Origin: a candidate division FCPU426 bacterium
GTDB taxonomy: Bacteria; Oederibacteriota; Muellerivitia; Muellerivitales; Muellerivitaceae
DNA length: 64,000 bases
Direction: 5' to 3'
Assembly (NCBI GenBank): GCA_963796105.1
Contig: CAWCKJ010000007.1
Location: forward strand, 64,001-128,000
Shown: piece after piece, positions 40,870 to 64,000 of the stretch
How positions within the stretch are numbered: the first letter of the stretch is position 1
How the letters are laid out: each line of letters begins with the position of its first letter
The notes under the pieces: model-generated
The model's database searches: none
Told to the model about the DNA's origin: nothing
Seen by the model: only the letters and a program-made list of their open reading frames with translations
Translations under genes and position numbers: made by a program

Positions 40870-43800
40870 CTACCTCAAGACCAGCCACTTGAGGATTTGC
40901 CTTTGCCCCTTCACCGTTACCGCCACGTAATAAAGCCCGTCGGCCAGGGGAACGCCGTCCTGATCCGCCAAGGGAAGGGGCAATACCTGGCTCGGGGCCA
41001 CCGGGTTGAAAGTCAAATCCAATACTTTCCTGCAAGCAACGGTGTAAATTTGCACGCGGGCTGAAACGGGTGAGGTGAGGCTCAGGCGCACTAACGTAAG
41101 GACATTTCCCTTGCAGGGGTTGGGATATAGGACGGCGCCGGAGGGGCCGCCGGGGGCGGCAGTGGCGGCGGGTGAGACCGTTGGGGTTAAGATAGGCGTG
41201 ACTGTAAATGCGCCATTTGAGGTTACGGTTGGCGTGGGGGTATTTGTAGGAGTGGAAGTGGCCACTGGGGTTATGGTCCCAGATGCCGTAAAAGTGGGTG
41301 TTTGAGAAGGGGTGAATGTGGGAGTCAGGGAAGGCGTTGGAGTAAACGTTGCCGAAGGCGTAATGGTGTTGGTTGGCGACGATGTAGGTGTTTTTGTGGC
41401 CGTCACCGTCGGGCTGGGAGTGGGCGTGAACGTGGTGGAGCAGTAAAAGGCGACCTGGTCCACCTCATAGCTGAAACTAACGCCATGCGATTCAGTGGCG
41501 AATTGTAAACCTGTCACGTCCGTGCCCGCGAAGGCGGTTGGGAGGCCCGTCTGGTAACCCCATCCCTGGGTTACCATTTGGGAAAAAGGGATCTGATAGA
41601 AGGTCCACTGGTTTTTAGGCGGGCTAAATGGATAACCGTAACTATCGTTATCGGTCACGGCTTGGCTCAGCACATTGGCGCGGTAGTTGTTGCCGTCCCC
41701 GTAAATCCAAAATTCAACTCCAATCACCCCTGCCCCGCTCAAGTTACAGGCAACCGGAGGCCAAGTCGAGCTCAAGCAGCTTTGGTAAATGCACCAGGAA
41801 GTGTTGGTGGCGGCCATCGAGCCGGAAACCTGGACGGCATATTTGGTACCCGTCGCCCCGGGCGAAACGCCATATTGAACTGTGGCGGCGGTTCCGTAGT
41901 TGTCAAATAACATGATCCATATTCCGCCCCAAAGGTTGACGCGGCCAGACGCCGTGTCACGGGTCAAGTTTTCAAAATCATCCACCATGATAGCGGGTCC
42001 GTAATTGGGCGTAGGCGTAATGGTGGGCGTGAGGGTAATGGTGGGTGTTTGGGTCGCCGTATTGGTGGGTTGGCCGGCTTTGGCGAATTGGAGGACGGTG
42101 ATGGAATAGGGCTGGAAAGTAACGGGGATATTTGAGGTAATTCCCGTCAAGGTAAAGCTGGTCGGGGCGGAATCCGGAGAGGCATGGTAGGGCGTAGTGC
42201 CGGTGGTCACCCACTGATAATTCGTGGAATTAAAGGACCAGCCGCTAGCGGTGCTGTTGGGAGTGAAAGGCAATCCCGTGATCATGGCGGCAAAGGAGTT
42301 GGAAGGATCCTTATTGACCACGGCCAGGGAGAAGACGCCGTCAGGCCGGTAGTCGGAGTAGGCCGCCAAGAGGGTGCTGGAAGCGCTGTTGGTAACCGTG
42401 GTGGAGATGAGCTGGTGGGGGTTGGTATCACCGGGGATGGCCCAGTCACTTGCCATCATCTGCATGGCCCAGTAGGTGGCGCGGGGTTGGTACTGAAAGC
42501 CGTCATTGATGTTGTTCAAATAACCAAGATCGCCATCCGTCGCGACGGTTTCTTCGTTTCCGCCGCCCAAGATATCAAAGAAGTTACTGAAGCCATGTGC
42601 GCCGAAATCGGTGATGAAGTGCCCCAGAACATCGGCCAACCAAAGGCCATTTCCTAGTTGAACCGTGAAAACGAGGTTGGGTTGGGCCGCATCCGCGTTA
42701 TATTCCGTCATCATGACCGGAACCGAAGTGGGGTTGAGGCCGGCCTCGGATAACCAGGAATGAAGTGTCGCGGGATAAGTGTCCAGGCTGCCGGCGCTGG
42801 TCAAGGCTTGGGAGGCGGAATAGGGGTTGGCGGGAGTGCCCCAATTGGGATACCAATGAAAATCGATGGCGTTAATCACGCCCGCGGCGCCACCCATGCT
42901 GACGAAATCCTGGATCATCGTGTTTCCGTCGTACAGATTGGAGGGAGCGGTAAAGCCTCCCGCCACGGGGCCCGTGATGGTGATCGTGGAATCCACCGCC
43001 TTCATGGCATTGTAATATTCGATATATCGCCTCGTGTAATCGCTCGCGTTCAGCGGGCCCCCTGTTTCCCAGGCCCCATGCATTTCATTTCCAATCTGCC
43101 AATACTTGATGCCGTAATTCATGGCCTTATTGGCGTAATATACCCAGCTGGCGGCTTCCGAAGCCGTGCCCGTGCCCATATTGACTGTGATCAAAGGAAT
43201 CGCGCGGGGGCTGAAGGAATTCACGTAGGCCATAAAGGAAGCGAAATCCCATGAAACGGTCGCGTCCTCCTCGCTGCCAGGATCCATGCTGGAAACCACT
43301 GTCCAGGTTTGGGCCGGAAGGCCGCTCGCGTCCAAAGTATCCGTGTTGCGGGTGACCTGTCCGCCGGGCCCGTAGACATAAAGTTCGGCGATAGAATAGG
43401 CGCCGCCCGCTCCCGCCGAACTGGAGGTCATTAAGATCCGCAAGTGTTCCATGCCCACCGCGCTGAAGGTTACCCCTTGGATGCCGCCCGTACTCGAAAA
43501 AGAGCCAATGGTTTGCCAATTAGATTCGGAAATGCCCTGCATGTAAGGCGGCGGATAGCCGTTAGGCCCGGCCCAATACTGGACTTGGAAAGAGGCGGCG
43601 TAGGGTGTTCCCCAGACGATGGTGACCGCGTTCACCATTGTCACCGTGTTCGAGGGATTGCCGTCCGGTCCAGTCAGGTCCAATTCCACCCATTGGTGGT
43701 TGGGGAAATTCGTGTCCATATTGGAAAGCCAAACGGCGGAAGAATCCCCATCGGTAAGGTTGGAGGGAATCCCATAAGAGGATGTGGTTCCAGTATAAAT

Positions 43801-44154
43801 GTCGAAATCGGTGAAACTTGGGCTGTAGGCGGCGCCGCTGGGAATCCAGAAATCGTTGATATAGCTTCCGCTTCCGTTCCAATGGAAGTTGTCGGCGGCG
43901 GAACCACCCGGGTAACGGAGAAAATAATTCCCCGCCGCCTGGACTTGCCTCTGGGTGTTCATGTATTCGGCCGCGTCAATCCAATCACCCGTGTTATTGC
44001 CGAAAATGTTGATGGGAACAAAAGAGGTCAAGGTTGTCGCGGCGTTGACCGTTATTGTAGTCGGAATGGTCTGGGCCAGTACAAACGGGGGCCAGACGGC
44101 TCCGATGACCGAGGTGAAAAACAGGAAGCTTATAATAAATTTCAAAGCCTTCAA
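40870..44154 (-). CDS. Secreted clan GH-A glycoside hydrolase (GH44/51/79-like) with discoidin-like insert, CIA30/CBM11-like domain, TP linker and C-terminal sorting-type domain
   Basis: [44 protein letters not shown]...DGLYYV; likely TTG start at 44154. Confidence 0.82.
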
Positions 44155-44171
44155 GTAAAACCTTTTTCTTT

Positions 44172-44288
44172 CTACCTCAAGACCAGCCACTTGAGGATTT
44201 GCCTTTGCCCCTTCACCGTTACCGCCACGTAATAAAGCCCGTCGGCCAGGGGAATGCCGTCCTGATCCGCCAAGGGAAGGGGCAATAC
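44172..44288 (-). repeat. 117-bp direct copy of the 3' end (40870-40986) of the adjacent glycoside hydrolase gene
   Basis: One mismatch seen in 117 bp; lies immediately upstream of the same gene's start. Confidence 0.95.
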
Positions 44289-44393
44289 TCCCTTTTCAAC
44301 TTATTTAAAATGCCTATTCCAAAAGTCGCATCCGCTTTATGGGCGCTAACAAAGAAAGGGGCTTTGCGTAAGCAGGTCCAATTAAAATTTTGG

Positions 44394-44460
44394 TTTAATT
44401 GATGGTGACGTCGTCAATAAAGAGGTTCACGGTATTAAAGGGGCCCGTCGCCATAGAACT
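44394..44460 (-). pseudogene. Orphan 3' fragment paralogous to the C-terminus of the 44509 gene
   Basis: TGPFNTVNLFIDDVTIN* versus SGPFNTVDFYLDDFSIE*. Confidence 0.6.
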
Positions 44461-44508
44461 GTTGACGAAAGGTCGTCCCTTGATTCTTTCCGCACGGAAA
44501 CGCACGAT

Positions 44509-46101
44509 TTATTCAATGCTGAAATCGTCAAGGTAAAAGTCAACGGTATTAAATGGACCCGATGTGCCTGAAGCCCCCGTGTAAAGGCTTATTGTAATTT
44601 CCCAAACTGCGGTAGGATCAATGCTACCATGGCCGCCATAAATGATCGGATATGTAATTTGCGTCCAAACCCCGGTAGTTAAAGTCACCGATTCTCCGCC
44701 ATCCCCATACAAAGTATCCACATCCAATCCTAACTGGTTGCCACTAGCATCGGGAAGTTGATTGATGTAATACCAGAAAGAAATTGATTTTCCGGTTAAG
44801 TTAACAGGAGGGTTGAAATTATAAAAGATCTCCCCAAACTGTGCGGCTCCGGAAAATAAGAATGTAGCGCAAGCGGATTGGCTTCCCGAATGAGACTCAG
44901 CGATTGTAAGCGCTAACGGCGATGCTGTTTCTCCGCTGCTCCAGGATCTCCATCCAGTAGGCAATGATGATTCCTCAAACCCTTCAGCCGGAAAAGTATC
45001 GACCGTGGAAGTTGGGGTGACGGTAGCGGTGAATGTTTCCGTGGCCGTGTTAGTAATGGTCGGAGTATTAGACGCCGTTGGTGTCGAATCAACCGCCTGC
45101 GACCCGTTGATAATACCCGGTTGGCCCGCTGTCCCGTTAATAGCTGAATTGCTTCCAGTCCCACCAGCCCCACCATTCACCTCCATAAAACCGGAAAAAG
45201 GAGGAGCATTAATATCAATAATTCCACCGCCGCCGCCACCCCCTCCACCAGCCTGCGCAGAATTTTCTCCCGACCCGCCATTAGCGGAAATAGTGCCGTT
45301 ACCTAGGAAATATGGGACTGCGATATATATCCCGCCGCCTGCGCCACCCCCGCTGCCGTTGCAATACCCCACACTGCCTCCTACGGATTGGCCGTCCATA
45401 TCAATAGTTCCATTGATGGTGACAGCTACGTTTCCAGAACCCGAACCCGAGGCAACTATCCACAATAAAGCCCCACCGCTTCCCCCTGAGTTGGACGGAC
45501 AATTTCCACTACCTCCCCCACTACCCATTAAACCGGGGACAGTAGTGTCGTTTTTATTTGTCGAAAGTGTGTTTGGCGTCGCCCCGTCGCCACCAGAACC
45601 CCCATGACCACCGCCTGTGCCAGTGGAACCTCCTCCACCAGTGCCAAGTCCCGGACCATAGCCCAAGCCGACGCCGTTGATCGAACCACCGGCTTCCGCC
45701 GTTAGGTACTGGTAGATATCAAGGGTCACCGCCCCGTTGATATAAAGCGTTCCTCCAGGGGATATAACAATATCCTCATAAATATAAGTCCCGGACGTTA
45801 GTGTGACCGATCCGGTAACATTGAGGGTGGGAAGGGGCGTTGCTGTGGAGGTCGCTGTTTTAGTTGGTGTGGAACTCACGGTTGGCGTATTGGTAATAGT
45901 CGGGGTTGGGCTCGCGGTGAAAGTCACCGTAAGCGTCATCGAATTCGTCGGCGTAATGGTTTGCGTCAGTGTTGGAGTGATGGTCGGACTTTGAATGGTA
46001 ATAGGCTTGGCGGGAGTGCTGATGGAGGAACTACAAGCGCCGGTCAGGGCCGCTGCCACCGCGAGGATGAGGACCGAGGCCCAAACGGATTTGTTCCCCA
46101 T
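44509..46101 (-). CDS. TP-linker lipoprotein with Gly-rich domain and C-terminal CBM-like domain
   Basis: MGNKSVWA...LTGAC lipobox; TPT repeats; GGGGGGG stretches. Confidence 0.8.
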   Translation of the reverse strand: MGNKSVWASVLILAVAAALTGACSSSISTPAKPITIQSPTITPTLTQTITPTNSMTLTVTFTASPTPTITNTPTVSSTPTKTATSTATPLPTLNVTGSVTLTSGTYIYEDIVISPGGTLYINGAVTLDIYQYLTAEAGGSINGVGLGYGPGLGTGGGGSTGTGGGHGGSGGDGATPNTLSTNKNDTTVPGLMGSGGGSGNCPSNSGGSGGALLWIVASGSGSGNVAVTINGTIDMDGQSVGGSVGYCNGSGGGAGGGIYIAVPYFLGNGTISANGGSGENSAQAGGGGGGGGGIIDINAPPFSGFMEVNGGAGGTGSNSAINGTAGQPGIINGSQAVDSTPTASNTPTITNTATETFTATVTPTSTVDTFPAEGFEESSLPTGWRSWSSGETASPLALTIAESHSGSQSACATFLFSGAAQFGEIFYNFNPPVNLTGKSISFWYYINQLPDASGNQLGLDVDTLYGDGGESVTLTTGVWTQITYPIIYGGHGSIDPTAVWEITISLYTGASGTSGPFNTVDFYLDDFSIE

Positions 46102-46247
46102 ACCGATACCCCTTGAATTTATTCCCCGCCTCAAGAAAACAAGGGGGTATTAGCATTAAACTTAACCCTATTCAGTCTGGCTAAAGTTAAACCGGCATTC
46201 TTGAACAAGGAGCACTTGAATTTTTCTCAGCGAAAATAAAAAATAAC

Positions 46248-46805
46248 TTAAAAGTGCAATGCCGCCGTGACCTTGGGGCCGTAAGCCATGGCCGTCGTAA
46301 ATTCCGACCGACTCAAGAGGCCCACATTGATTCCAAGAGAGTATTTATCAACCGGAAATTCCAACAGATCCCCAAAACTTTTGTGTTTCAATTCTTTGAG
46401 CTTATCGTTGTGCTGGGAAGCTTCCATCGGCGCAAAAATCATGCTGGAAACCCACCCGCCCAGCCCTAAACCGAGTCCAATTTCCAGTCCGGTGTAATCC
46501 GTTTGGCCATAAGCGTTGATGCCGGTTCCTGATGGAAAACAGACCAGAACCACTGCCCCGCTTACGACAAATACATCGCAGAAAATCCCTACCGTAACAT
46601 CAACACCATCCCCGACATAATATTGGCCTAACCCGGGGACAAGAAATGAGTATAGGAAAGCCAAATTAGCATCCTTTTCATTCTCATTGTCCGGCATGAT
46701 CGTTCGTGGGAGAGGCTCACCACTCGCGTTTTGGGGAAAACAAGGCGTCATCAGCAACAACCCCATAAGCAAAATGCCCGCCCAGTGAATCCTGAAATAT
46801 TTCAT
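46248..46805 (-). CDS. Hypothetical membrane protein (TM2/DUF5683-like motif)
   Basis: AFLYSFLVPGLGQYYVG. Confidence 0.65.
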   Translation of the reverse strand: MKYFRIHWAGILLMGLLLMTPCFPQNASGEPLPRTIMPDNENEKDANLAFLYSFLVPGLGQYYVGDGVDVTVGIFCDVFVVSGAVVLVCFPSGTGINAYGQTDYTGLEIGLGLGLGGWVSSMIFAPMEASQHNDKLKELKHKSFGDLLEFPVDKYSLGINVGLLSRSEFTTAMAYGPKVTAALHF

Positions 46806-46988
46806 AACCCCCCCCTTAAAAATTTCTCATTTCACGTTCAATTGCATTGGTACTTTCAAACCATTTATAGTAAGTGGCTCCCGCATTTGTTGTTAAGAAT
46901 TATCTAATGCGTTGGTGCATTTCTAAAAATAAGAAAACCGCGTTCCAAATGAAAATTTTACACAAACACTAATGCGTATTAACGCGAA

Positions 46989-47584
46989 CTAGAATTCAAC
47001 CAATTTGGCAGTAGGAGAGCCATCTTTTATAAGGATGATGCTTCCGGCCATCGCGGCTAGGCTTATACCGCTAATAGTCAATCCATTTGAGACCGCATTG
47101 TCAGAACTACCGGCAAAAGATCCAGCTCCGACAATAATTCCGAGAAGACTGCCAATGACAAGAGCGGCGCCTGTTAGGGTTTCCGCGCTTTTACCTTCTG
47201 TTAATTCCCAGGTTTGTGTCCCCCCATTCGCGCTTACGTGAAAACTGGGGCCAGGAGAGCCAGCTAGGGAATAAAACCCATTGGGCAGTTCCAATTCCGC
47301 GGGGGCCTCACAAAGAAGCTTGCTAGTTTCACCATACCCATTAAGAGTTGCGTTTAATCCGCTCGCGGAAATTTCGGTTTGGTTTAAAATTCGCTTTATT
47401 GACATTGTTTTATTACTTTCGCTTTTAAAATGAGTTTAGTGACTCCAGCTTGCATGTTTTGCCCATTTTCCTTAAGTACGCGAATACCTGATGAATCCTT
47501 GGCCCGAACGTAAAGCGGTAAAAAAACAATCGAGACGATCAATAAAAACTGCAACCCCATCATTTTTCCACGGAACATTTTCAT
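46989..47584 (-). pseudogene. Hypothetical membrane protein split by one frameshift in an A-run near 47408
   Basis: ORF 47396-47584 (signal peptide) and ORF 46989-47405 join if one A is added. Confidence 0.55.
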
Positions 47585-47738
47585 AAAATCTTCTCCTTCT
47601 GGAAATAGAACTAAACTTTAGTGATGACCGCGACATTCCCCCTTCAAATGTGTGAACATTCTCATATCCTTGCGTTTTTAGATTTTATATTTCTTTCAAG
47701 CCTAGAGGTTTCCACGGCCTTTTTAATACCGTTTAGGG

Positions 47739-48545
47739 CTAAGGACAAGTCTGCCCTTGGATGGAATAGATGGAACCCAAAAGGGCAGTGCCACCCGACC
47801 ATGTCAGTGGAAAATAGTATTGTCCGGGCGTTTCCGTGCCAGGAAAACTAGTCTCCACAAAACCAATGCTTCCTGTAGGCGAGGACAATTTTACGCTTGA
47901 ATAAAAAACCAACCAATAAGTGGTTGCGCTTGTGATACTGACCGATGTCTGCAATGGATATGAAAACCAAGCGTCCGACGAAACAGTCCCTAACGGTAAA
48001 GATTGGAAGCCTGTCTCTGAAAGTAAATTTCCCGGGAATAATGAACTATCGGAATAAATACCAAGTTCCAAACCCACTGCGCTTCCAGTCGCGGGGATAT
48101 AAATCTCAAGGCTATTCAAAGTTGTACTGGAAGTGGCTGAAAAGGATTGGGCGTAAAGATTATTTCCAATGGCGGTTCCAGCCGCGCCCGTGTTGCTCGT
48201 TCCTAAAACCGTGCTTGAGTTGCATGTCGGCGTAATCGTAGGCGTCGATGTCGGCGTGGGCGTATAGGTGGAGGTGCCCGTTTTGGTCGGTGTGGCAGTT
48301 ACTGTTGGTGTTCTGGTTTTTGTCGGCGTATTGGTCCCCGTAAAAGTCGCCGTTACCAAAATAGTCACGGGTGTATCGGTACTGGTGGGCGTGGCGGTGA
48401 TGGTATAGGTGGGTGTTATGGTTGGGGTTGACGTAGGATTATTATGTGGGGAAGAGGGATTACTGGAATTGTTGGAGCATGACACGGCAAAGACCGCCGC
48501 CGCCATGAGTACAAAAATGACCGCCCAAACGGATTTATTTACCAT
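47739..48545 (-). CDS. TP-linker lipoprotein with C-terminal beta-sandwich domain
   Basis: MVNKSVWAVIF...AVSC lipobox; SNNSSNPSSP; TPT repeats. Confidence 0.8.
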   Translation of the reverse strand: MVNKSVWAVIFVLMAAAVFAVSCSNNSSNPSSPHNNPTSTPTITPTYTITATPTSTDTPVTILVTATFTGTNTPTKTRTPTVTATPTKTGTSTYTPTPTSTPTITPTCNSSTVLGTSNTGAAGTAIGNNLYAQSFSATSSTTLNSLEIYIPATGSAVGLELGIYSDSSLFPGNLLSETGFQSLPLGTVSSDAWFSYPLQTSVSITSATTYWLVFYSSVKLSSPTGSIGFVETSFPGTETPGQYYFPLTWSGGTALLGSIYSIQGQTCP

Positions 48546-48653
48546 TTAAATTCTCCCCATTTGAATTAAAAACAAAAGCCCCACACCGCAAACGCTGTCA
48601 GTGAAAAAAATCCCAGCCGCGACTGGCCAGGAACTTCTTCCAGACCCGCATTC

Positions 48654-49274
48654 CTATGTTGGCCAATGCAAGGTCCAAGCATCATTTACATTGCAATCGG
48701 TGACAGTATCATCAAAAGTCACGGTATTCGGCCCCGAACTGATCGTTGCCGTAAATTCGCATTGTGCTTGATTGCTGCACCAATAAAGGCCGGTAGGGTT
48801 ATTGGCCGTGAATAATTCGAAAGTAAGAACATACTGCCCGGGAGTTGCGTTGTAAAAAATCGTGACGGCATTCATGCTGGTATAAGGATCTCCTTGCGCG
48901 TTTTGGCACGTATAAAAAGCAGAACCCAGGCCATTCGCGCTGCCGTCCATAGTTACGATGAGTGAATACCCGCAGGGATTTTTTAAATTAAAAAGCACGT
49001 AGCCTTTTGCCGGCGCTTGCGTAGGAGTCATGGTGGGTGTTGAGGTAATGACGGCCGTCGGGATCATTGTGTGGGTTTTAGTGGGGGTGGCGGTTGGCGT
49101 ACTTGTATAAATGGGTGTGATAGTTCTCGTGAGAGTGGGGGTAAGGGTCGGGGTTGCTGTAGGATTATTATTTTGCGGGGAAGAAGGATTACTGGAATTG
49201 TTGGAGCATGACCCTGAAAAGACCGCCGCCGCTATAAGTATAAAAATGACTGCCCAAACGGATTTATTTTCCAT
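48654..49274 (-). CDS. TP-linker lipoprotein with Cys-containing C-terminal domain
   Basis: MENKSVWAVIF...SGSC lipobox; 5' region nearly identical to the 47739 gene. Confidence 0.8.
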   Translation of the reverse strand: MENKSVWAVIFILIAAAVFSGSCSNNSSNPSSPQNNNPTATPTLTPTLTRTITPIYTSTPTATPTKTHTMIPTAVITSTPTMTPTQAPAKGYVLFNLKNPCGYSLIVTMDGSANGLGSAFYTCQNAQGDPYTSMNAVTIFYNATPGQYVLTFELFTANNPTGLYWCSNQAQCEFTATISSGPNTVTFDDTVTDCNVNDAWTLHWPT

Positions 49275-49774
49275 TTAAATTCTCCCCAAATAATTGTTGA
49301 TTAACTTGTTGGATGTTAAATGCGTCGATATGCCTTGAATATGGCTGTCATCATACAAGTGCGATTAAATCGTGTGAATAAAATAAAAATAATTTTATGA
49401 TGTGAATGTAAATTTTGAGTCAAGCAGTTACCAATGGTTACCATTAAATTTTAATGCCGGGCTTATTAAACAGTTTTTAGAAGTAACGGCCTGGCTTTTG
49501 CCCGGGTTTCGTTTTTTAGCGGGAATCAAAACAATATCGAGTGGTACAAATTCCGATTGTTGCCCCTGAAAGCGGTATCAAAAACCTTCTATTGGGGTTG
49601 GATGGGTTTAGAAATTCATTATTTAGGTTTAAATTGTAAGAATTATGCGGTTTTGACCGAGAATGGGGACTAGCATTGACCTCCGCTGGCGCTCATCGTC
49701 GTCATGGCAAGGCCGGACCCAGATGAAACCAACCGCCAATTTGAGCCATGGGAAATGGATGAGAGAGAAGATCC

Positions 49775-51202
49775 TTATTGGATTTTTCGGATGAGGCTGT
49801 TGCCCGTGTCGGCAACATAGACATTTCCCGCGGAATCCACCGCGATTCCTTGGGGATAATTGAAGGACGCGCCTGTCCCGGTGCCATCGGCATGCCCCAC
49901 TGTGCCGGCCTGTCCCGCCAGGGTGGAAACAGTTCCAGAGGTGATTTTTCGGATGAGCTGGTTGCCGGTATCCGCCACGTAGACATTCCCGTAGTTATCC
50001 ACCGCGACTCCGTCGGGAAAGCTGAAAGACGCGGATGCAACGGATCCGTTCATGCTCCCAGTCACGCCCGCCTGGCCCGCCAGGGTTGACACCGTCCCGT
50101 CGGGGGCGATTTCCCGGATAAGGCTGTTACTCGTATCTGCCACATAGACGTTGCCGGAGGAATCCACCGCGACGCCATTCGGATAATAGAATGATGAAGC
50201 TGATCCGGGGCCGTTGGAGGACCCTGTCACGCCCGCCTGTCCGGCCAAGGTGGTCACATCGCCCCCCGGTAAAAACTTCCGGATGAAATGGTTATCGGTG
50301 TCCGCCACGTAGATGTTCCCGGAGGAATCCACCGCGACTCCCGAGGGATAACTGAATAACGCGGCCGTCGCCGGCCCGTTCAAGGATCCTGTCACGCCCG
50401 CCTGCCCCGTTAAAGTTGATACCGCGGCTCCTGAGCCGATGATCCGGATGAGGCTGTTACTTGTGTCGGCCACATAGACGTTGCCGGTGGAATCAACCGC
50501 GACGCCATACGGATAATAGAAGGATGCGCTGGTTCCGTTTCCATTGGCATGCCCGGTCACGCCGGCCTGCCCCGCCACGGTCGACACGATACCGCCGGAA
50601 GTGATGATACGAATGAGTTGATTGTTTGAGTCCCCCACGTAGATGTTCCCGGAAGTATCCATGGCCACTCCATCGGGAAACCCGAACGTCGAGGAGGTCC
50701 CTGTTGACGCGTTAATGGCCCCGGTCACGCCCGCCTGGCCGGCAATAGTTGTGACAGCCCCGCCGTTATTGTGGGTGGAGGTAATAGTCATGGTGAACGT
50801 TTGGGTGCTCGTGGGTGTTTTCGTCGTCGTGTTCGTGGGCGTGGAAGTCATGTTGTTCGTGGGTGAATAAGTCGGCGACGGGGTTGGTGTCAGGCTGAGC
50901 GTGGGATTGGGGGTGTTCGTGGGGGTTAAAGTCAGACTGCTCGTAGGAGTATAGGTCGGCGTTTTGGTTCCGGTCTGGCTGGGAGTGGGTGTGCCCGTGG
51001 GTGTTAAAGTTAGACTGCTCGTAGGGGTATAGGTCGGGGTGGGAACCCCATTTTCAGGAGAGGAAGGATTACTATTACTCTTACATCCCGCCGAAAAGAT
51101 CGCAACCGGAATTACCGCCGCCGTCATTATGGAGAAAACCATGAATATCTTGCGTAACGGAGTTTCATTTTCCGGACGAAAACCAACCCCAGGATTGAGC
51201 AT
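49775..51202 (-). CDS. NHL-repeat (beta-propeller) lipoprotein with TP linker
   Basis: SAGC lipobox; six PxGVAVDSxGNVYVADT repeats. Confidence 0.9.
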   Translation of the reverse strand: MLNPGVGFRPENETPLRKIFMVFSIMTAAVIPVAIFSAGCKSNSNPSSPENGVPTPTYTPTSSLTLTPTGTPTPSQTGTKTPTYTPTSSLTLTPTNTPNPTLSLTPTPSPTYSPTNNMTSTPTNTTTKTPTSTQTFTMTITSTHNNGGAVTTIAGQAGVTGAINASTGTSSTFGFPDGVAMDTSGNIYVGDSNNQLIRIITSGGIVSTVAGQAGVTGHANGNGTSASFYYPYGVAVDSTGNVYVADTSNSLIRIIGSGAAVSTLTGQAGVTGSLNGPATAALFSYPSGVAVDSSGNIYVADTDNHFIRKFLPGGDVTTLAGQAGVTGSSNGPGSASSFYYPNGVAVDSSGNVYVADTSNSLIREIAPDGTVSTLAGQAGVTGSMNGSVASASFSFPDGVAVDNYGNVYVADTGNQLIRKITSGTVSTLAGQAGTVGHADGTGTGASFNYPQGIAVDSAGNVYVADTGNSLIRKIQ

Positions 51203-52899: not shown

Positions 52900-53080
52900 G
52901 CACGATGTTTACACATATGACGATATATACAAATTATGTCGGATTTAGTGAAAGGATGACCACGATTTAGACATAAACACAAATAAACAACAAAAAAAGA
53001 CATCAACAAAAGGGTTAGTGGTTCGACTAGCTCAACAAAGGCTTTACCGAAGGAATCATATTGGGTGTACTTCCCTACCC

Positions 53081-53632
53081 GTAGGGTCGAGGACTGGCGA
53101 GGTGATGTGCAGGTTGATCCTTGGCTTGTTTCCCCGTTTCCTTCGCTCCGCGGACATTACTCCGCTTCTCCTGTCTGCCGAAGCTTCAGCGCAGGCAGAT
53201 AGCTACTTTTAACCCGTCCTACTCCCTCTTGCCTTCGACCGCCTTCCCGCGTTGCGTTATACGGCCTACCTTTTTCCAAGTATTTCTACTTGGGGCAAGG
53301 AGGGTCTCTCCAGTTGCTCAATGTGTCCTTGTCTTCATGCCGTGGCTAAGCACCCCGCCAGAGTGTTCCAGCGCATTGGCCATCTGGCCGCTGTTCCATG
53401 TTGCCTTCATCCCACGACGGAGGATTCGGCCTCTGGGGCTATTGTTTTCGGGGCCACCTATGCCTTCACTTGCGTTACGGCCTGACGACTCGCTCACCAT
53501 CCCGAAGATGGCTTTGTCGATGGGCTTCAGGCATTAAGTTTCCCGCTTGCCTGCCATCCTAGCTAATGGGCTTTGGCTATTACCCATGCAAGTCTACCTC
53601 TTGCTGAACACTCCTGCCTTTTCTGGACGCGC
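53081..53632 (-). mobile_element. Group II intron, degenerate ORF-less copy lacking domain V
   Basis: Same 5' (GCGCGTCCAGAAAAGGC) and 3' (GTCCTCGACCCTAC) ends as the adjacent copy; about 310-bp internal deletion. Confidence 0.85.
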
Positions 53633-54494
53633 GTAGGGTCGAGGACTGGCGCGGCGATGTGCAGGTAAACCCTTGGCTTGTTTCCCCGTTTCCGGTTCCG
53701 TGCCCGTTTAGGGTCTTCCATCATTCCGTTTCCAGCCCCCGCCACCTCGAACGCAACGTGCGGATTTCCCGCATTGCGCTCTCCTGTTGCTTTCGCGTCA
53801 AAGTTTATGGTGCTTATCGAAACCGGCAGTGCTTTCAAGTATGGTTCGCCTATGAACTTTCCCCTACTCCACCTGTCCCGGCTTTCTAAGCTTTCCCTTT
53901 AACGTATATCCCTCGTCTCAGGTCTTGCAGACTAATGGACGTCTTTTTCATACCGTCCCTGCCTCCCACTTTTGCCGAAAGATTTCACAACAGCAGGGTT
54001 ACTTCGCTCCACGGACATTACTCCGCTTCTCCTGTCTGCCAAAGCTTCAGCGCAGGCAGATAGCTACTTTTAACCCGTCCTACTCCCTCTTGCCTTCGAC
54101 CGCTTTCCCGTTTTTCGGTTATACGGCCTACCCTTTTCCAAGTATTTCTACCTGGGGCAAGGAGGGTCTCTCCAGTTGCTCAATGTGTCCTTGTCCTCAT
54201 GCCGTGGCTAAGCACCCCGCCAGAGTGTTCCAGCGCATTGGCCATCTTGCAGCTGTTCCATGTTGCCTTCATCCCACGACGGAGGATTCGGCCTCTGGGG
54301 CTATTGTTTTCGGGGCCACCTATGCCTTTACTTTCGTTACGGCCTGACGACTCGCTCACCATCCCGAGGATGGCTTTGTCGATGGGCTTCAGGCAGTCGG
54401 TTTCCCTCCTGCCTGCCATCCTAGCTAATGGGTTTTGGCTATTACCCATGCAAGTCTACCTCTTGCTGAACACACCGGCCTTTTCTGGACGCGC
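53633..54494 (-). mobile_element. Group II intron, ORF-less, with intact-looking DV/DVI
   Basis: DV GAGCGCAATGCGGGAAATCCGCACGTTGCGTTC (about 53749-53781, AGC triad); 3' end CCCTAC; remnant of intron-encoded protein start MKKTSISLQDLRRGIYVKGKA* at 53951-53886. Confidence 0.92.
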
Positions 54495-54551
54495 CGTCGT
54501 GGACAACCCGAACCCTAAAATATCGAGACTGCTGTGGTCACAGTTTTGGTT

Positions 54552-55520
54552 CTACTTTTGATTCCCGATTTTGGCGTCAACTCCAGATACTTCTACAACC
54601 GCCTTCCAAAGGGCGTCCTGATTTGCGCGGTCATGGAGGTGTTCATGGCGCATGATCTCAATGGGACCCGTCATCTTTTTTGGAGGCGAGCAAAAGAACT
54701 TGCCAGAAACATCGACGCCAAACTTCGAGGCGGCGAGATACCTTTTGGCCCCTTCATCGACGGAATGTGACATTCCGGGAATAAGTTTCGAAATCCGCAC
54801 AAATACGTTCTTCATAAGAAAACCTAGATTGCGAGGCGCCAGGGTATCTGGAGCGGCCCCGGGTGAAACCGCGTATACGGCCATGTCCGCAGGAAGCTTT
54901 CGAGCAAGGGCCGCGACCCACCACGCGACAAATATTTTAGCGTCAGAGTAAGCCGTGCTAGCCTTGTATTTTACATTCGGGGAGCTGCGCAAAATCGCTT
55001 CTATGGCTGAAACCCGGTCGCCTTTGTACTCTTTCGCGGCGAATGCCGCCAAGTCGGTAAATTGAAACATGGGTACATCACCTCGCGCAGGTTCCGCGCC
55101 GGCAATAACAATACGAGCATCCGGCGCCAGAAGTCCGGCACCTAAAAGTCCCATCGTTAACTGGTGATGGCCGATCAACGGCGCTTGCGAAGCCTCAATG
55201 TTCTCGCTTGTCACAACACGTTCTTTGCCTGGCATCATACCAGCGTTGAGAAGGAGAAAATCTATGGGTTCGCCTCCCGCTCCCTTAACTAGCTCGGCGA
55301 CCGCCTTCTTCACGCTTGCAAACGAATCTAGGTCGAGGGCAAGACCGGTGATGTTTTGTGTTCCGGCATCGATCTTTAACCTGCTAACCGCTTCATCCAC
55401 CTGGGGCCGGCTACGTCCAGTGACTATAACCTGACTCCAACCATCCATGGCAAGTTGCTTGGCTGCCGAGTATCCTAAGCCAGACGTAGCGCCGGTAACG
55501 AGTGCGACAGGCTTTTTCAT
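54552..55520 (-). CDS. Short-chain dehydrogenase/reductase
   Basis: TGATSGLG, NAG, YSDAK. Confidence 0.9.
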   Translation of the reverse strand: MKKPVALVTGATSGLGYSAAKQLAMDGWSQVIVTGRSRPQVDEAVSRLKIDAGTQNITGLALDLDSFASVKKAVAELVKGAGGEPIDFLLLNAGMMPGKERVVTSENIEASQAPLIGHHQLTMGLLGAGLLAPDARIVIAGAEPARGDVPMFQFTDLAAFAAKEYKGDRVSAIEAILRSSPNVKYKASTAYSDAKIFVAWWVAALARKLPADMAVYAVSPGAAPDTLAPRNLGFLMKNVFVRISKLIPGMSHSVDEGAKRYLAASKFGVDVSGKFFCSPPKKMTGPIEIMRHEHLHDRANQDALWKAVVEVSGVDAKIGNQK

Positions 55521-55669
55521 AGTTTGTCTCCTAAGTCTAACATTGTGGGAAATAGAACCATTTAATTATTGTAGTATACGCTACAGAATGACCCAACTAC
55601 TGTCAAGTGATATTGTTGCGGTTGCTACAAATAGATTGTCCGAAGTGTTTCGTATGGGTAAAATGAAGC

Positions 55670-56257
55670 ATGAGTCGAAAAATAGAATTTAATTACGATA
55701 ACGCGGTGGATCAAGCGATGCGGGTTTTCTGGGGTGAGGGATACTCTGGCGCATCATTAAAAGACCTTCTCAAGGCGATGAAAATTGGGGAAGGCTCCTT
55801 CTACAATACCGTCAAAAGCAAAAAACAACTCTACATCGAATGCTTGAATCGATATGGAGAGGTCGAAGGTAATAAAAGAATTTTGGCTCTAACATCAGCC
55901 CCGAATGCGCGTCTCGGACTTCGGGCTATGCTAAGCGCAATGTTCGATTGTCTCGATGATCCGAAGAATCCTTCATCTCTTTGCATGATTGCGGCAATGA
56001 TTTCCAATGATGTCATGGCTGATAGCGAATTAAAGAAAGCTGCTATTGCCAGGGTCAATCAAGGCAAAAAGTTAATTGAAGATAAGATTGATGAAGACAA
56101 AAAAGCTGGGCGTCTTCCTAAAAGCTATGACTCACATACAGTTGCTGATGTCATAGTTACTTACTTCCAGGGCATTTGGCGTATGGCCATGATTTCATAC
56201 AAACGGGAAAAGTTCGAGCGCGAATCAGAAGCATTTCTTCAAGGATTGGGCCTTTAG
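55670..56257 (+). CDS. TetR/AcrR-family regulator, divergent from the SDR gene
   Basis: FWGEGYSGASLKDL...GSFYN...SKKQLY. Confidence 0.92.
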   Translation: MSRKIEFNYDNAVDQAMRVFWGEGYSGASLKDLLKAMKIGEGSFYNTVKSKKQLYIECLNRYGEVEGNKRILALTSAPNARLGLRAMLSAMFDCLDDPKNPSSLCMIAAMISNDVMADSELKKAAIARVNQGKKLIEDKIDEDKKAGRLPKSYDSHTVADVIVTYFQGIWRMAMISYKREKFERESEAFLQGLGL

Positions 56258-56354
56258 CTTTAGAATTTCCGAATCACACTGATACTCCAACTTCCAAGTC
56301 ACTGACACTTCGCCCGAAGTGAAACAAGAAAATTAGTACAAAAAGGTCTTTTTT

Positions 56355-56386
56355 CTTGTCCACGAAGGGTCCCCGTCGTGGACAAG
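56355..56386. repeat. Palindromic repeat CTTGTCCACGAAGGGTCCCCGTCGTGGACAAG
   Basis: Family members also at 54495-54506, 57533-57562, 57576-57603, 62136-62163 and 62793-62817. Confidence 0.85.
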
Positions 56387-57532: not shown

Positions 57533-57603
57533 TTGTCCACGGCGCGGGCACTTCATGGACAACCCTTTTTCCCTCTCCACTCTGGGTCCCCGTCGTGGAC
57601 AAG
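57533..57603. repeat. Two copies of the TGTCCACGAC/GTCGTGGACA palindromic family
   Basis: TTGTCCACGG...CATGGACAA and TCCACTCTGGGTCCCCGTCGTGGACAAG. Confidence 0.75.
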
Positions 57604-57730: not shown

Positions 57731-59461
57731 TCATCCGAAAGTAAAGGCATAGACGGAGGTACCTGCGTTTTGGAATTCGATACGCAGGCGATGGGAGCCG
57801 GGCTTTCCCTTTAAGTCCGCCAGGTTATAAAGCCGCTGGGTGTCCAGTGTCACCTTTCCATCCTTCACATCCGCTCCTCCCTCGCCGCCAATGGCTTTTC
57901 CATCAAGGAAAAGGGAGACCTGGTCGCCCTTGTTCGCCGGGCCGATCACCAGATACACCTTGTCCGCCGTGAATTGAATCTCAAGGGCCGAGCCCTGATC
58001 CGGCTTGGCCGCCTCGCCCGTAAGCATCCAACCGCCCTCGTAGCCGATCTGGTGGGACTTCAGGGACTTCGGCAGGGAATAAACCTGCTTCCCGGCGACG
58101 GGTTTTTGCGGCGAGACGAAACGCTCCAATCGGTTCAACCCCAAATAAGATTCGGGGGTCTGGTCGTAATCCTCAGATGGGGCCTGCGCCAGGGTAGCGG
58201 CCCCTTCCACGGGATGGCCGGCCTCAGCCAGCAGCTTTCTGATGGCGGCGTCCATCTCCTCGTAATGGCCCTCGCTGAAATGAGCCAGACGGATATGACC
58301 CTTGTCGTCGATCAGGTACTCGGCGGGCCAGTACATATTTTGGTAGGCGTTCCAGGTTTTAAAGTCGTTGTCCTGGGGGACAGGATAGGTGATCTCGAAC
58401 TGTTTCAGGGCTTTTTGGACGTTGGCGGTTTCCTTCTCAAAGGCAAACTCGGGCGCGTGGACCCCCACTAGGACGAAATGGTCCGGACCGTATTTTTGAT
58501 ACCAGGCCTTGGTGTTGGGAAGGGTCCGGAGACAGTTGATGCAACTGTAGGTCCAAAAGTCAACCAAAACCACCTTTCCCCTCAACCCCGCCAGTGTTAG
58601 GGGAGGGCTGTTGAGCCAGTTCGTGATGCCGGCGAACTCTGGCGCCGGGCCCATGTCCGCAAGTTCCCCCCCATTTCTGCGCTTTCCTGGCGGGATTTCC
58701 TTCCCCTCAGGGTATCCAACTGCTCGCTGACGATCTTGTTGTTTTCAACCCCATTGACCAGGCTCCCATAGGAAGGAAAAGCCTCCAGGATCTTCAGCTG
58801 AATGGTCTTATCGTAATTGGTGTAAATGAGAAGGGCCACGCCGATCATGATGACGCCGAAGACCTGCTGGATGCGGCCCGTGTACTTGTTTAACTTGCGC
58901 ATCCGGGCGAAGAGGAAAGAACCCCCCAGGGAGACCAGGAACAGCGGTATCCCCAACCCCACCGCGTAGGCGAGGGTCACCAGTACCACCTGAAGATTGA
59001 CCGATTGGGTGGCGGCTAAGGTGGCGATGGTGGCCAGGATCGGTCCGGCGCAGGGCGCCCAGACCAAGCCGATGGAAAAACCCGCCACGTAGCCAGCGCC
59101 GAATCCCGTCCCTTCGCCCTTCCCCTGAAGGCGGTTTTGCAGGGGCTGAAGAACCTGGTTAATCCAGGTCTCGAACTTCGCGCCCAGGGAGGGGAATAAA
59201 AGGGCCACACCCAAAAGGCCGATGACAATGACCGCGACTAGTCTGAAGACATTGGCGTCAATGTGGAGGAAACGCTCTAGGTAGGACACAAACAGCGTGA
59301 AAAGGGTGAAGCTGGTCATGACCCCCAGGGTCAGGCCGAAGGGTTTTTCCCTTTCCCCCGGTTGAGGAGACAGAAAGCACCAGGGGCAGAAGGGGCCAAA
59401 TGCAGGGGGCGAGGATGGTGGCGAAGCCAGCCAGGAAGCTGAAGAAGAGAAGGAAAAGCAT
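57731..59461 (-). pseudogene. dipZ: DipZ-like CcdA plus thioredoxin fusion with two frameshifts (pseudogene or sequencing error)
   Basis: LAPCIWPLLP, WAPCAGPIL and DFWTYSCINC lie in three ORF pieces; breaks at homopolymers near 59350 and 58668. Confidence 0.85.
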
Positions 59462-59562
59462 GGGAACCCCTTTCGGTGGATTTGTTGACTTAAACTACAA
59501 CGAATCACCCTGAAAATTTACGGAAACCCCTTCCATCAACACCTCTTTTTGCGTGAACCCCA

Positions 59563-60225
59563 TCAAGGGTGTTGGTGAATGGCTTCTTGCGCCACCTTCA
59601 ACAATTCATCCGTATCAACCCGCACTTTAATGTCTGGGTTGAAATAAACGTAATGAATAATCCCTTTTTGATCGACGACATAAGCGGCCGGGACCGGAAG
59701 CAGGTGGAGCTGGTTCCCCGTTGCCGAATCCAGGTCCACGCCGAAACTTTTCATTTTGGCCAGGGTTTCCGGGTTGAGCCGGTAGGCCAGGTGAAATTTC
59801 CGGGTCAATTCCATGGAACGGTCCGAAAGGAGGGTGTAGTTGATCTGGTGCTTGTCCAGGCTTTCCTTAAGTTTTTCCGGCTTATCCGGGCTTATGGCCA
59901 GCATCTGGTATCCCATTTCTAGGAGTTTTGGCTCGATCTTCACCAACTGGCCCATTTGAAGGTTGCAATAGGGGCACCATCCGCCTCGGTAAAAGATCAG
60001 CACCGTCGGCTTTTTCAGGATTTCGGACTTAAAATGAAAATCTTTCCCGTCCAGGGTTTTTAAAATCCCGTCAGGTATGGAATCCCCTGATTTAAGTGGG
60101 TGGACATCTTCGGCTTTGTCCGCTACGAATTTGTTCATGGGTGCGGCCACGACACCCCCCCTTGAAGCAACCATCGAAAGGCAAAAAAAGCTTACGAATA
60201 AAAACGCCCCTATTTTCACTCTCAT
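59563..60225 (-). CDS. AhpC/TSA-like peroxiredoxin-family protein
   Basis: FYRGGWCPYC, AISPD, LPVPA. Confidence 0.9.
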   Translation of the reverse strand: MRVKIGAFLFVSFFCLSMVASRGGVVAAPMNKFVADKAEDVHPLKSGDSIPDGILKTLDGKDFHFKSEILKKPTVLIFYRGGWCPYCNLQMGQLVKIEPKLLEMGYQMLAISPDKPEKLKESLDKHQINYTLLSDRSMELTRKFHLAYRLNPETLAKMKSFGVDLDSATGNQLHLLPVPAAYVVDQKGIIHYVYFNPDIKVRVDTDELLKVAQEAIHQHP

Positions 60226-60460
60226 ATCCTCCGTTGACTATTGGTTGAACGGAATATTAAAAATCCAAAAAGGGCCTTATGACCCATCTCTTGGTAGGCG
60301 AAAGGAGAAAATCGAACGGCAGGAAGTCAACTAGGCATTGAAATTGCCGCCAGTTCTTTTTCGGCGCCCCAAAAGCTTTTTTCCGCCTCCCGTGGTGCCC
60401 TTTCCCTTCGAGGGCCCAGGGCCCTGAGCACCCTTGAAGGTGTGGTTCAACTTTCCTTTT

Positions 60461-60985
60461 TTACGGTTTCTTTTCGGACACGAACCGCACTGCGGCGGAG
60501 TTTATGCAATACCTCAGGCCCGTGGGTAGCGGCCCGTCGTCGAAAACATGGCCCAGGTGCCCCCCACAGCGGGGGCAATGGACCTCCGTCCGGTCCATGC
60601 CCAAGGAAGAATCGGTTTGGGAGGCCACGTTTTCCGGATAGAGGGGCTTATAAAAACTGGGCCACCCGGTTCCAGACTCGAACTTGGTGCCGGAGGAGAA
60701 AAGCTCCAGGCCGCACCCGGCGCACACATAGACCCCCTTCGCATGGTTGTCCCAATAGGCGCCGGAAAAGGCGGCTTCCGTTCCCCCTTGTCGAAGGACA
60801 TCGAACTGTTCGGGATTGAGGATTTTCTTCCATTCGGAGTCGGTCTTAACGACCTTGTCACCCCTGTATTTTCCTTTATAACATTCTTTCTCCTTGTGGA
60901 CCGCCGAATCTTTCGCGAACACGGCATAGGATAGGGCGGATAACACGAAGAGAATTCCCAATAACAATCCCATCATTTTTCTCAT
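60461..60985 (-). CDS. msrB: Peptide methionine-(R)-sulfoxide reductase with signal peptide
   Basis: [30 protein letters not shown]. Confidence 0.96.
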
Positions 60986-61952: not shown

Positions 61953-62135
61953 GCTTTTCTTTGACACCACTTTAAAAGAGTCGCCATTAAAGGTTATTGG
62001 CGGGGATAAGGCAAGGCCCGAAGAACCCGCTAAATGATTTAGATTCACGTTTTTTCCAATTTATCTTTCAGTAGCGAAATACCCTTGTGGCTTTGTTTAA
62101 GTTACTGATTTTTGATTAATATTTGAAATGTTCAT

Positions 62136-62163
62136 TGTCCACGACGGGTCCCCGTCATGGACA
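62136..62163. repeat. Palindromic repeat family copy
   Basis: TGTCCACGACGGGTCCCCGTCATGGACA, 13 bp from the stop of the 62177 gene. Confidence 0.85.
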
Positions 62164-62176
62164 GCTTTAAAGCCAT

Positions 62177-62764: not shown

Positions 62765-62792
62765 TTTTTCTCCTTAATAAAACTATTTATCA

Positions 62793-62817
62793 TCCAATCT
62801 GGGTTCCCGTCGTGGAC
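62793..62817. repeat. Palindromic repeat family copy with degenerate left arm
   Basis: TCCAATCTGGGTTCCCGTCGTGGAC abutting the stop codon of the 62818 gene. Confidence 0.7.
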
Positions 62818-63906
62818 TTATTTTGTAATCGACCCCGCAGTCGCTTCCTCCACAAAAAGCCTAGATGCGGGAGCCAGATTGGTTCCTGAGAAAGTGGCCT
62901 GATTTAAGATGGTTGTCTGGACGTTATATAGGGTCGAACCGGTGGCCACCGGATAAGCCGCCGAAAGATCCGCCGGGGAGTTTATATCGGGCCCAATGGA
63001 AGTATAGGAATCATACGTGGTCACCGGCCCTCCGGTTTGTTGAATAACAACAATCCCATCCGAATTCCCCTCGTAGGTCCAAGTGATGGCCGTACCTGCC
63101 GCGTTGGCCGTAAGGCCGCCAGGGGCGCTGACCGATGCCGAGGTGACGGTTCCCAGGGAAGTGCTGACCGACATCGAGTAACTTCCCGCGAGCTGATATG
63201 TCACGGCCGTGGAGTAAGAATACCAAGCCATTCCGTTGTAATTCGTTAAGTATGGAAGCGTCAAGGGGCCGCTTGGAGTGTTTAAAACCACCGAATCCGT
63301 GGTTTCCGGCAAACCGTTGACGGTAATCCATGCAAAAGGTGTCATACTCAATGTTCCATCCCCCCAAGCGTAGCCCTGGACATAGATACCCGGTGGAAAT
63401 GTGGCTGTTGGTGTCGATGTTGCTGTAGCTGGAACCGTATTGGTGATAGTTGGGCTGTTGGTGGGCGTCCTCGTGGGGGTTTTGGTCGTGGTATTTGTTG
63501 GGGTATAAGTAATGGTAGGAGTTCCTGTTGGCGTAGCCGTAGGGGTTATGGTAGCTGTATTCGTCTGGGTAGACGTGGCCGTTTTCGTCGGGGTGGAAGT
63601 GATTGTCGGCGTGACTGTGTTCGTGGGGCTGTTGGTCGGGGTAGAAGTCGATGTAACCGTTGGTGTGGAAGAAGCTGTTGAGGTGGCCGTCGATGTGGGG
63701 GTGGAAGTGGAGGTGCCGGTTTGCGTACAAGTCGAGGGATAGCAGACACTGGTGGATGTAAGGGTCATAGTCGGTGTATCGGTAGCGGTAGCTTTTTTAG
63801 CCGGGGGGTTTGTGGGGTTATTAGAGTTGCTGCAGGCGATCGGGAAAAGTCCCAAGAAAAAAAGAAGGATTAAACCTAAACCCAAAAGGAAAAATGATCG
63901 GCGCAT
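62818..63906 (-). CDS. TP-linker lipoprotein
   Basis: PIAC lipobox, SNSNNPTNP, long Thr/Pro linker, distinct C-terminal domain. Confidence 0.8.
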   Translation of the reverse strand: MRRSFFLLGLGLILLFFLGLFPIACSNSNNPTNPPAKKATATDTPTMTLTSTSVCYPSTCTQTGTSTSTPTSTATSTASSTPTVTSTSTPTNSPTNTVTPTITSTPTKTATSTQTNTATITPTATPTGTPTITYTPTNTTTKTPTRTPTNSPTITNTVPATATSTPTATFPPGIYVQGYAWGDGTLSMTPFAWITVNGLPETTDSVVLNTPSGPLTLPYLTNYNGMAWYSYSTAVTYQLAGSYSMSVSTSLGTVTSASVSAPGGLTANAAGTAITWTYEGNSDGIVVIQQTGGPVTTYDSYTSIGPDINSPADLSAAYPVATGSTLYNVQTTILNQATFSGTNLAPASRLFVEEATAGSITK

Positions 63907-64000
63907 TGATGCCTCCCGCAAAAGATTCTATAAAGACCTTGAAATAGATTACCACTCCAACGGAAATCGAGGGGTTGGTTTTTCAAGGCCAAATAATCCA

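Follow-up and report, generated by a model that had tools for sequence, protein, structure and literature searches.

Stacked ORF-less group II introns in a 30-bp site that very probably bounds mobile gene cassettes, and a candidate short serine recombinase

The window analyzed here, a 64,000-nucleotide stretch of a contig from a member of the family Muellerivitaceae (candidate division FCPU426), contains two stacked ORF-less group II introns which are real and represent a new variant of a known behaviour. The introns are lodged in a 30-bp site that is repeated across the genome (denoted G000 in the locus names below). In our assessment, this site very probably bounds gene cassettes and is likely recombined at its central GA dinucleotide by a short serine recombinase, the introns having likely arrived by retrohoming with a reverse transcriptase supplied in trans. 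The evidence, all of it drawn from sequence comparison, consists of the anatomy of the introns, the covariation of EBS1 with the exon, insertion at a fixed position (+12) of the site, the homology of cassettes from site to site, a recombinase gene abutting sites, and half-sites that break at GA. The coordinates of the relevant features are collected in Table 1.

Table 1. Features of the window that are discussed in the text
Feature	Positions	Strand	Remarks
Intron B, ORF-less group II	53633..54494	-	862 nt; RNA domains I-VI present; after base 12 of the site
Intron A, group II remnant	53081..53632	-	552 nt; without domain IV, domain V and half of domain VI
Catalytic domain V of B	53749..53781	-	Intron_gpII match and folding
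ORF-deletion junction of B	53872..53903	-	common to ORF-less copies in G030 and G006
Stub of the intron-encoded RT in B	53889..53951	-	21 codons
30-nt hairpin insertion, domain II of B	54031..54060	-	counterpart in A, 53170-53199
EBS1 of B (CGUCGU)	54276..54281	-	preceded by C; same loop in A, 53414-53419
Probable EBS2 of B (ACAA)	54304..54307	-	pairs with exon bases -12 to -9
Left arm of the host site (5' exon)	54495..54506	-	carries IBS2 (TTGT) and IBS1 (ACGACG)
Rest of the host site (3' exon)	53063..53080	-	centre GT, not GA; right arm degenerate; last site of the array
Two-gene cassette beside the introns	54495..56385	-	short-chain dehydrogenase, 54552-55520; TetR regulator, 55670-56257
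Intact 14-GA-14 site, intron-free	56356..56385	-	position-weight scan
Degenerate site, altered centre	57533..57562	.	position-weight scan
14-GA-14 site, intron-free	57573..57602	-	position-weight scan
14-GA-14 site, same array	62135..62164	-	position-weight scan
14-GA-14 site, same array	62790..62819	-	two further sites just past the window edge

Anatomy, target and origin of the stacked introns

On the minus strand, intron B is followed head-to-tail by intron A with no gap. Both introns end in CGACCCTAC and begin with GCGCG (GTGCG in relatives), and in the Infernal search with Rfam models that the preliminary description of this DNA had called for, both match group-II-D1D4-4, which covers domains I-IV (119.5 and 115.8 bits). 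The Intron_gpII model recognizes only domain V of B, with 38 bits, slightly below the cut-off of 40 bits. Apart from this score, B has the hallmarks of a group II intron, namely the domain I-IV fold, a domain V that folds into a canonical hairpin with the AGC triad and a 2-nt bulge, a domain VI of 116 nt with an A left unpaired seven bases before the intron end, and ends of the GUGYG...AY type, with GCGCG as a variant start that is also found in family 2 introns (see below). The stub in B is 86% identical to the start of the parent RT. Over domains I-III, introns A and B share 95% identity. A has suffered a 310-nt deletion that removed domain IV, domain V and half of domain VI, with the junction near 53140; Intron_gpII finds no domain V in it. 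The A form, devoid of the catalytic domain V, is a single copy, and this type of deletion was not found in the other loci compared, which gives no indication that the domain-V-less form is mobile. The preliminary description was accurate with respect to the exact boundaries and lengths of the two introns, the retention of domains V and VI and of the stub in B, and the loss of domain V in A.

The only near-complete copies of these introns in the 4.98-Mb assembly are A and B themselves, with one further 32-nt match elsewhere. The 30-nt hairpin in domain II is confined to the two introns; two loosely similar hairpins located elsewhere in the same genome suggest that the insert is perhaps a small mobile palindrome. 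Public sequencing runs have no more than 20% of the words in common; the four that were compared contain related single introns and no spliced junction, and give no indication of habitat or expression.

The claim that excision of both introns rebuilds part of a repeat holds: 15 bases become identical to the right part of the sites at 56356-56385 and 57573-57602. Only that arm of the host site is intact; the centre is GT and the opposite arm is degenerate (5.4 bits compared to the cut-off of 15 bits). Both of these neighbouring repeats are indeed unoccupied; the repeat family, described as local, is instead represented by 62 copies across the whole genome. The hairpin with the loop CGTCGTG, previously proposed to contain EBS1, is found in both introns, and the proposal is borne out by covariation with the exon across 18 target types. 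In the wider RT family, the 18 distinct EBS1 sequences form, on average, 5.67 of 6 pairs with their own exons compared to 2.89 in 10,000 shuffles (p = 1e-4), and 45 of the 46 distinct intron-exon pairs form 5 or 6 of the 6 bp. The probable EBS2 forms a mean of 3.28 of 4 Watson-Crick pairs at its best register, which was picked by scanning and carries no shuffle control. Among the 18 copies outside this genome that have the EBS1 CGUCGU and a visible 5' exon, 14 are inserted at +12 of a site, one is in a site with an altered junction and three are at other sequences; insertion at +12 extends across five genera. This tabulation of flanks is in line with the earlier suggestion of a non-autonomous lineage homing to a repeat. 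In the accessible part of the description of class IIC introns, EBS2 and part of EBS1 are said to be absent (PMC3753933); because the 6-nt EBS1 covaries and EBS2 is present, the A/B family does not belong to class IIC. Given also that the target is not attC, the relationship to IIC-attC introns that was drawn previously is an analogy only.

The RT of this family (family 1) consists of 433 amino acids and lacks an endonuclease domain; its nearest plasmid matches are at 63-65%. Most of the relatives of this RT, which come from many phyla (loci L054-L113), insert just 3' of the domain V 3' strand of other group II introns, an intron-killing choice of target; according to a crude pattern, 47 of the 70 exon ends of these wider relatives are domain V of other introns. 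Given this preference of the relatives, the family-1 lineage was likely retargeted. Under this scenario, EBS1 would have exchanged its target in domain V of other introns for the left arm of the 30-bp site, gaining tens of intergenic targets per genome along with transport by cassettes.

A search of 61 genomes detected family-1 introns in 11 of the 30 genomes of the bacterial family and in none outside it. RT-coding parents of approximately 1.94 kb are present in G025, G018 and G019; those in G001 and G026 are damaged. No RT parent was detected in the present genome (96.8% complete, 16 contigs) with PF00078 (0 matches), tblastn or a custom HMM, which matched only the stub; the trans-acting protein therefore appears to have been lost, to be unassembled or to be transient. 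The ORF-less copies in G030 and G006 (89% and 86% identical to B, respectively) have the same deletion junction as B, so that a single junction is found in three genera with three different flanks; G030 encodes related RTs, and G006, like the present genome, has no RT match. We infer that a single ORF deletion gave rise to a non-autonomous lineage, which continued to spread between genera; the introns likely arrived at the site by retrohoming with a borrowed RT.

With regard to the stack itself, A starts with G, so that the exon/A junction retains IBS1, IBS2 and the +1 G, in contrast to the A/exon junction, which has no IBS1; a second insertion would accordingly be expected only in front of A. 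Intron A, then, would have been inserted first, and B would have reverse-spliced into the still valid exon/A junction; A alone, lacking domain V, would be dead. This is the order envisaged in the preliminary description, with B re-inserting before A by means of an RT acting in trans, and it appears to be the only one that keeps the EBS/IBS pairings, even if the RT parent itself is missing from this genome. The stack could alternatively stem from a local event, in which one intron was duplicated or gene-converted and a deletion followed, rather than from two homing events. Such local copying also fits the changes that in the alignment are private to A and B, that is, the GCGCG start, the 30-nt insertion in domain II and an extra T, together with the high overall identity of the two introns. 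We nevertheless consider it rather unlikely because the join is exactly head-to-tail with no duplicated exon, because a tree of the first 500 nt, in which the branches are short, groups A with an RT-coding copy from G026 (0.91) and B with the ORF-less copy from G030 (0.86), and because in four cases in G025 a single site carries a stack of introns from two different families, 1 and 4, which shows that repeated homing to one site does happen.

The 30-bp site, its cassettes and a candidate recombinase

The consensus of the site, TTGTCCACGACGGG GA CCCGTCGTGGACAA, consists of two 14-bp arms in perfect inverted repeat, which flank an asymmetric GA that is conserved at 97%. The 62 sites in the present genome were identified with a position-weight scan, which on the block-shuffled genome yields 4 matches at 15 bits or more and none at 20 bits or more. 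The site pattern is present in 26 of the 30 genomes of the bacterial family and in none of 30 others, with no control matches; a looser pattern is found in 29 of the 32 genomes of the order. Viral contigs contain no site, plasmids contain no credible match, and a scan for promoters and terminators revealed no excess over shuffles.

Altogether, we delineated 430 distinct sites and 289 cassettes with a median length of 784 bp and one or two genes each. The cassettes are arranged in tandem and each carries a site, with neighbouring sites co-oriented in 298 of 310 pairs; in the present genome, the gene upstream of the site is co-oriented with it in 48 of 53 cases and the downstream gene in 40 of 53. 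The array in G002 includes at least 13 cassettes. The cassette beside the stacked introns, which encodes a short-chain dehydrogenase and a TetR family regulator, has a counterpart in another genus (G004) with 91% identity between the sites compared to 45-47% outside; in G004, its downstream site is empty, that is, intron-free, and the neighbours differ. Similarly, a 333-bp cassette recurs from site to site on two contigs of the present genome. It is thus very likely that the sites bound mobile cassettes, and movement from site to site is apparent in these comparisons, both between arrays and between genera.

Several individual cassettes and clusters merit mention. A low-GC (31%) cassette with a site on either side (G000:C3:299522-302274) lies between what we take to be two pantothenate genes, panB- and panC-like, indicating that arrays can start inside core operons. 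The window itself contains a cluster of genes for secreted proteins or lipoproteins with long Thr-Pro-rich linkers (40870-51202 and 62818-63921), and the Thr-Pro-rich gene at 62818-63921 is itself a cassette between two sites. A redox module located between two sites (57731-60985) presumably encodes thioredoxin-like, DsbD/CcdA-like (with an apparent frameshift near 59460), peroxiredoxin-like and MsrB proteins, and has a diverged copy (73-76%) in an array on contig C4.

Half-sites provide information on the position of the breakpoint. There are 73 partner-less arms that continue with GG, 34 of which continue with GA. These 34 left arms match the site through GA and then agree at the next base in only 18% of the cases, compared to 93% in 375 full sites; such breakpoints right after GA would fit the 2-bp crossover of a serine recombinase. 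Left arms greatly outnumber right arms among the partner-less ones (34 and 6, respectively, with 5 of the 6 right arms interrupted by introns), an imbalance that simple two-ended insertion does not explain. Covariation between the two arms, examined as a sign of hairpin formation or of pairing inside cassettes, is weak or null (co-deviation p = 0.06 within sites and 0.20 within cassettes). In one region of G026 (L023:7972), a family-1 intron that begins at its own second base is joined to a left arm plus GA; this joint looks like a recombinase crossover into an intron-filled site.

The site could instead be a non-recombining intergenic palindrome, such as a REP-like element, a terminator or a protein-binding site, that merely attracts introns, as the preliminary description implied. 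The 30-bp site can indeed form a hairpin, and ORFs that we label as HUH transposase-like are found near some arrays, which would agree with a palindromic element. We nonetheless regard this possibility as highly improbable, considering that homology between cassette copies begins and ends at sites, that 96% of the sites are co-oriented, that the centre is asymmetric and almost invariant, and that the cargo consists of toxin-antitoxin-like pairs (presumed from their sequences) and orphan genes of lower GC content (46% compared to 51%; 28 segments). That the site is the joint of a cassette system spanning the bacterial family, with a candidate serine recombinase, and hosts three further intron families could not be seen from the window alone.

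The candidate enzyme surfaced in a search for resolvase domains (PF00239) as a gene abutting arrays; a survey of genes recurring at array ends (1265 ORFs at 120 loci) yielded no recombinase. Relatives were collected over a length range of 152-487 aa. All 19 database proteins with 74-100% identity to the candidate are 275-283 aa long and consist of the Resolvase and Recombinase domains only, without PF13408; beyond this short clade, the next matches have at most 61% identity and variable length, and many contain a zinc ribbon. The short protein has the catalytic serine and the recombinase domain, and lacks the zinc ribbon, the coiled coil and the distinct attP/attB pair of large serine integrases. 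A structural model based on the alignment (pLDDT 80, compared to 41 for a single sequence) matches serine integrases. In 7 of the 10 pairs of short recombinases, dN/dS is 0.08-0.16; the other three pairs are saturated.

All five intact genes found in genomes end 8-36 bp from an oppositely oriented site, which in one case is filled by an intron, and five decayed copies likewise end near an oppositely oriented site. The exception is a metagenome fragment (L258) in which the next site is 110 bp away and has the same orientation. Among full-length relatives, 0 of 9 have a site in the flank available, and a single full-length relative was detected in viral contigs. In G025, the recombinase gene resides in a 7-kb unit bounded by two co-oriented sites, along with genes that we take to be ArdC- and RadC-like.

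For the LI integrase, the available structural description assigns contacts with 13 bp to the recombinase domain, binding of positions 16-24 to the zinc ribbon and the control of direction to the coiled coils (PMC3783163). A protein that ends before the zinc ribbon and the coiled coil would therefore fit a 14-2-14 site without directionality. Such an enzyme might bind approximately 13-14 bp on each side of GA and, being unable to distinguish attP from attB, would recombine any two co-oriented sites; excision and re-insertion of cassettes could then build tandem arrays, and an intron inside a site would block recombination there until it is lost.

An intact short recombinase is encoded in only 5 of the 32 genomes, compared to the 29 that have sites; there is no match in the site-rich G006, G022 and G023, or in the present genome, which encodes only a 512-aa relative adjoining a tRNA gene. 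Most arrays therefore seem to be orphans or to be served by passing elements. The same disparity would also agree with cassettes that are real and moved by another enzyme, either a tyrosine recombinase, for which the site would be read as 12-6-12, or an unrecognized one, with the serine recombinase genes as mere passengers; a single Xer-like protein is present in 29 of the 30 genomes of the bacterial family, and tRNA-targeting integrases of about 370 aa are often found near arrays. We consider this alternative improbable. In 18 of 21 loci, the Xer gene is preceded at 13-37 bp by an unrelated 11-6-11 site of its own; the 370-aa integrases are located beside tRNA genes, and the half-sites retain GA alone, with no 6-bp overlap. 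The short length, purifying selection and fixed geometry of the serine recombinase also speak against passenger status. Of the enzymes considered, we thus favor the short serine recombinase.

The chromosomal Xer was specifically rejected as the enzyme for the 12-6-12 reading given that it has its own site, which the cassette site does not resemble, contrary to what is expected of a Xer/dif (pdif) system. The tRNA-targeting integrases and the recombinase trios near arrays show no fixed geometry to the sites and are linked to tRNA genes or to genes that we label as ArdC/RadC-like. The IntI profile TIGR02249 matches 0 of the 32 genomes at E 1e-30, and the control genomes are silent as well; of the 36 tyrosine-recombinase matches in the present genome, 22 were inspected by reading, without a family scan. 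Apart from the cassettes, the single Xer-like recombinase (L185, G000:C3:368879-369958, and 20 orthologous loci) is conserved in the order and scores below the XerC, XerD, XerA and XerS cut-offs. The arms of its 11-6-11 site covary, staying palindromic (18 of 21 loci), and in G004 the locus is near the GC-skew switch. This gene and its site are likely an undescribed one-protein Xer/dif pair.

Four intron families on one site

Four families of group II introns use the same site, each at a different position: family 1 at +12, family 2 at +20, family 3 at +27 and family 4 at the right or outer edge, and all four have ORF-less derivatives. The RTs of families 1, 2 and 4 show 39-45% mutual identity. 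Family 2 is represented by two near-identical ORF-less copies in the present genome and two RT-coding copies in G002, and its EBS1 changes together with the exon (CGGGUC with GACCCG and UGGGUC with GACCCA); two relatives in G030, at 81%, are inserted at other places. The two ORF-less copies (L138, G000:C4:38851-39564, and L139, G000:C4:34943-35656) occupy sites 4 kb apart, and their presence in a genome with no detectable RT can be read as recent movement without a resident protein. Family 3 includes an ORF-less intron in G001 and a 5' fragment in the present genome.

For family 4, each of the 24 rows in which the 5' flank is visible (22 of them distinct) places the intron at a site; the ORF-less form accounts for 12 domain V matches in G025, and 10 RT-coding copies are present in G026. 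This family (exemplified by G025 L027:1966-2770) has no normal GUGYG start and begins near ATCGTGCC. It is found at the outer edge of either arm and on either strand, and the approximately 12 ORF-less copies are identical where compared.

Implications and comparison with known systems

We lean towards the view that these arrays represent a third route of cassette capture, in addition to integrons and dif modules, whereby a minimal serine recombinase, blind to direction and carried by integrative elements, seeds a single 30-bp site. The site would then allow genome-wide shuffling of cassettes throughout the order, and would have become a niche where four intron lineages have converged, along with their ORF-less satellites. 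Introns at the sites may throttle or seed the formation of cassettes. If this view is correct, cassette arrays require neither IntI nor attC, which means that attC-based integron searches miss a whole class of adaptive gene stores. A natural recombinase of approximately 280 aa that joins identical 30-bp sites would then allow a direct test of the role of the zinc ribbon and the coiled coil in directionality, and could serve as a compact Cre-like tool. The four lineages at four positions, together with ORF-less copies in genomes with no detectable RT, amount to a natural experiment on harmless repeated targets, and the same convergence bears on the persistence of non-autonomous introns. On its own, the stacked pair is only modestly interesting; what makes it valuable is that it exposes the site. 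In the full-text literature searched, which covers a minority of subscription papers, we found neither cassette arrays based on a serine recombinase nor an integrase that lacks the zinc ribbon and is associated with such sites.

Introns in cassette joints are known, according to the accessible parts of the relevant reports, both as IIC-attC introns of the S.ma.I2 type (PMC4424553) and as IIB/class E introns in integrons and CALINs (PMC7923331). As in these cases, the introns described here lack the endonuclease and occupy repeated joints of cassette arrays rich in toxin-antitoxin genes. They differ from both in having a 6-nt EBS1 and an EBS2, in using a 30-bp site that is not attC, in belonging to four families at four positions of one site, and in the abundance of ORF-less forms. 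Bacterial ORF-less introns are described in the available text as rare and nearly always accompanied by a related RT in the same genome (PMC4424553); in contrast, the present genome and G006 (98% complete) have no RT match. A close parallel is TeI3 of Thermosynechococcus elongatus, for which the available text reports that one ORF deletion founds a lineage served by an RT in trans and that a repeated mobile target aids its spread (PMC2882425). Here too a single ORF deletion appears to have founded a lineage of ORF-less copies; unlike what that text reports for TeI3, this lineage spans three genera and the copies are arranged head-to-tail rather than nested.

The arrays resemble integrons and CALINs, as far as the accessible description goes, in their tandem, co-oriented cassettes of one or two genes, each of which terminates in a recombination site, in the many arrays that have no nearby recombinase, and in cassettes common to several genomes (PMC8618304). 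They differ from integrons in having a sequence-conserved 30-bp inverted repeat and a candidate serine recombinase whose 3' end faces the array. The attC sites have GTT/AAC ends, which the 30-bp site lacks.

With the large serine integrases LI/A118, Bxb1 and phiC31, as characterized in the accessible text, the system shares the catalytic and recombinase domains and a pseudo-palindromic site with an asymmetric central dinucleotide (PMC3783163). The short recombinase is 54-61% identical to its full-length relatives and, unlike the large serine integrases, stops right after the recombinase domain, without the zinc ribbon and coiled coil that give direction; instead of one attP/attB pair, there is one type of site in tens of copies. 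The pdif modules of Acinetobacter plasmids are likewise gene modules bounded by short double-stranded recombination sites; those sites resemble the chromosomal dif and use XerC/D. Unlike in pdif modules, the site used here is distinct from that of the chromosomal Xer, and all cassette sites have the same orientation. The 30-bp site, then, works like the joint of an integron and at the same time falls outside integrons, IIC-attC systems, pdif modules and large serine integrases as these are defined.
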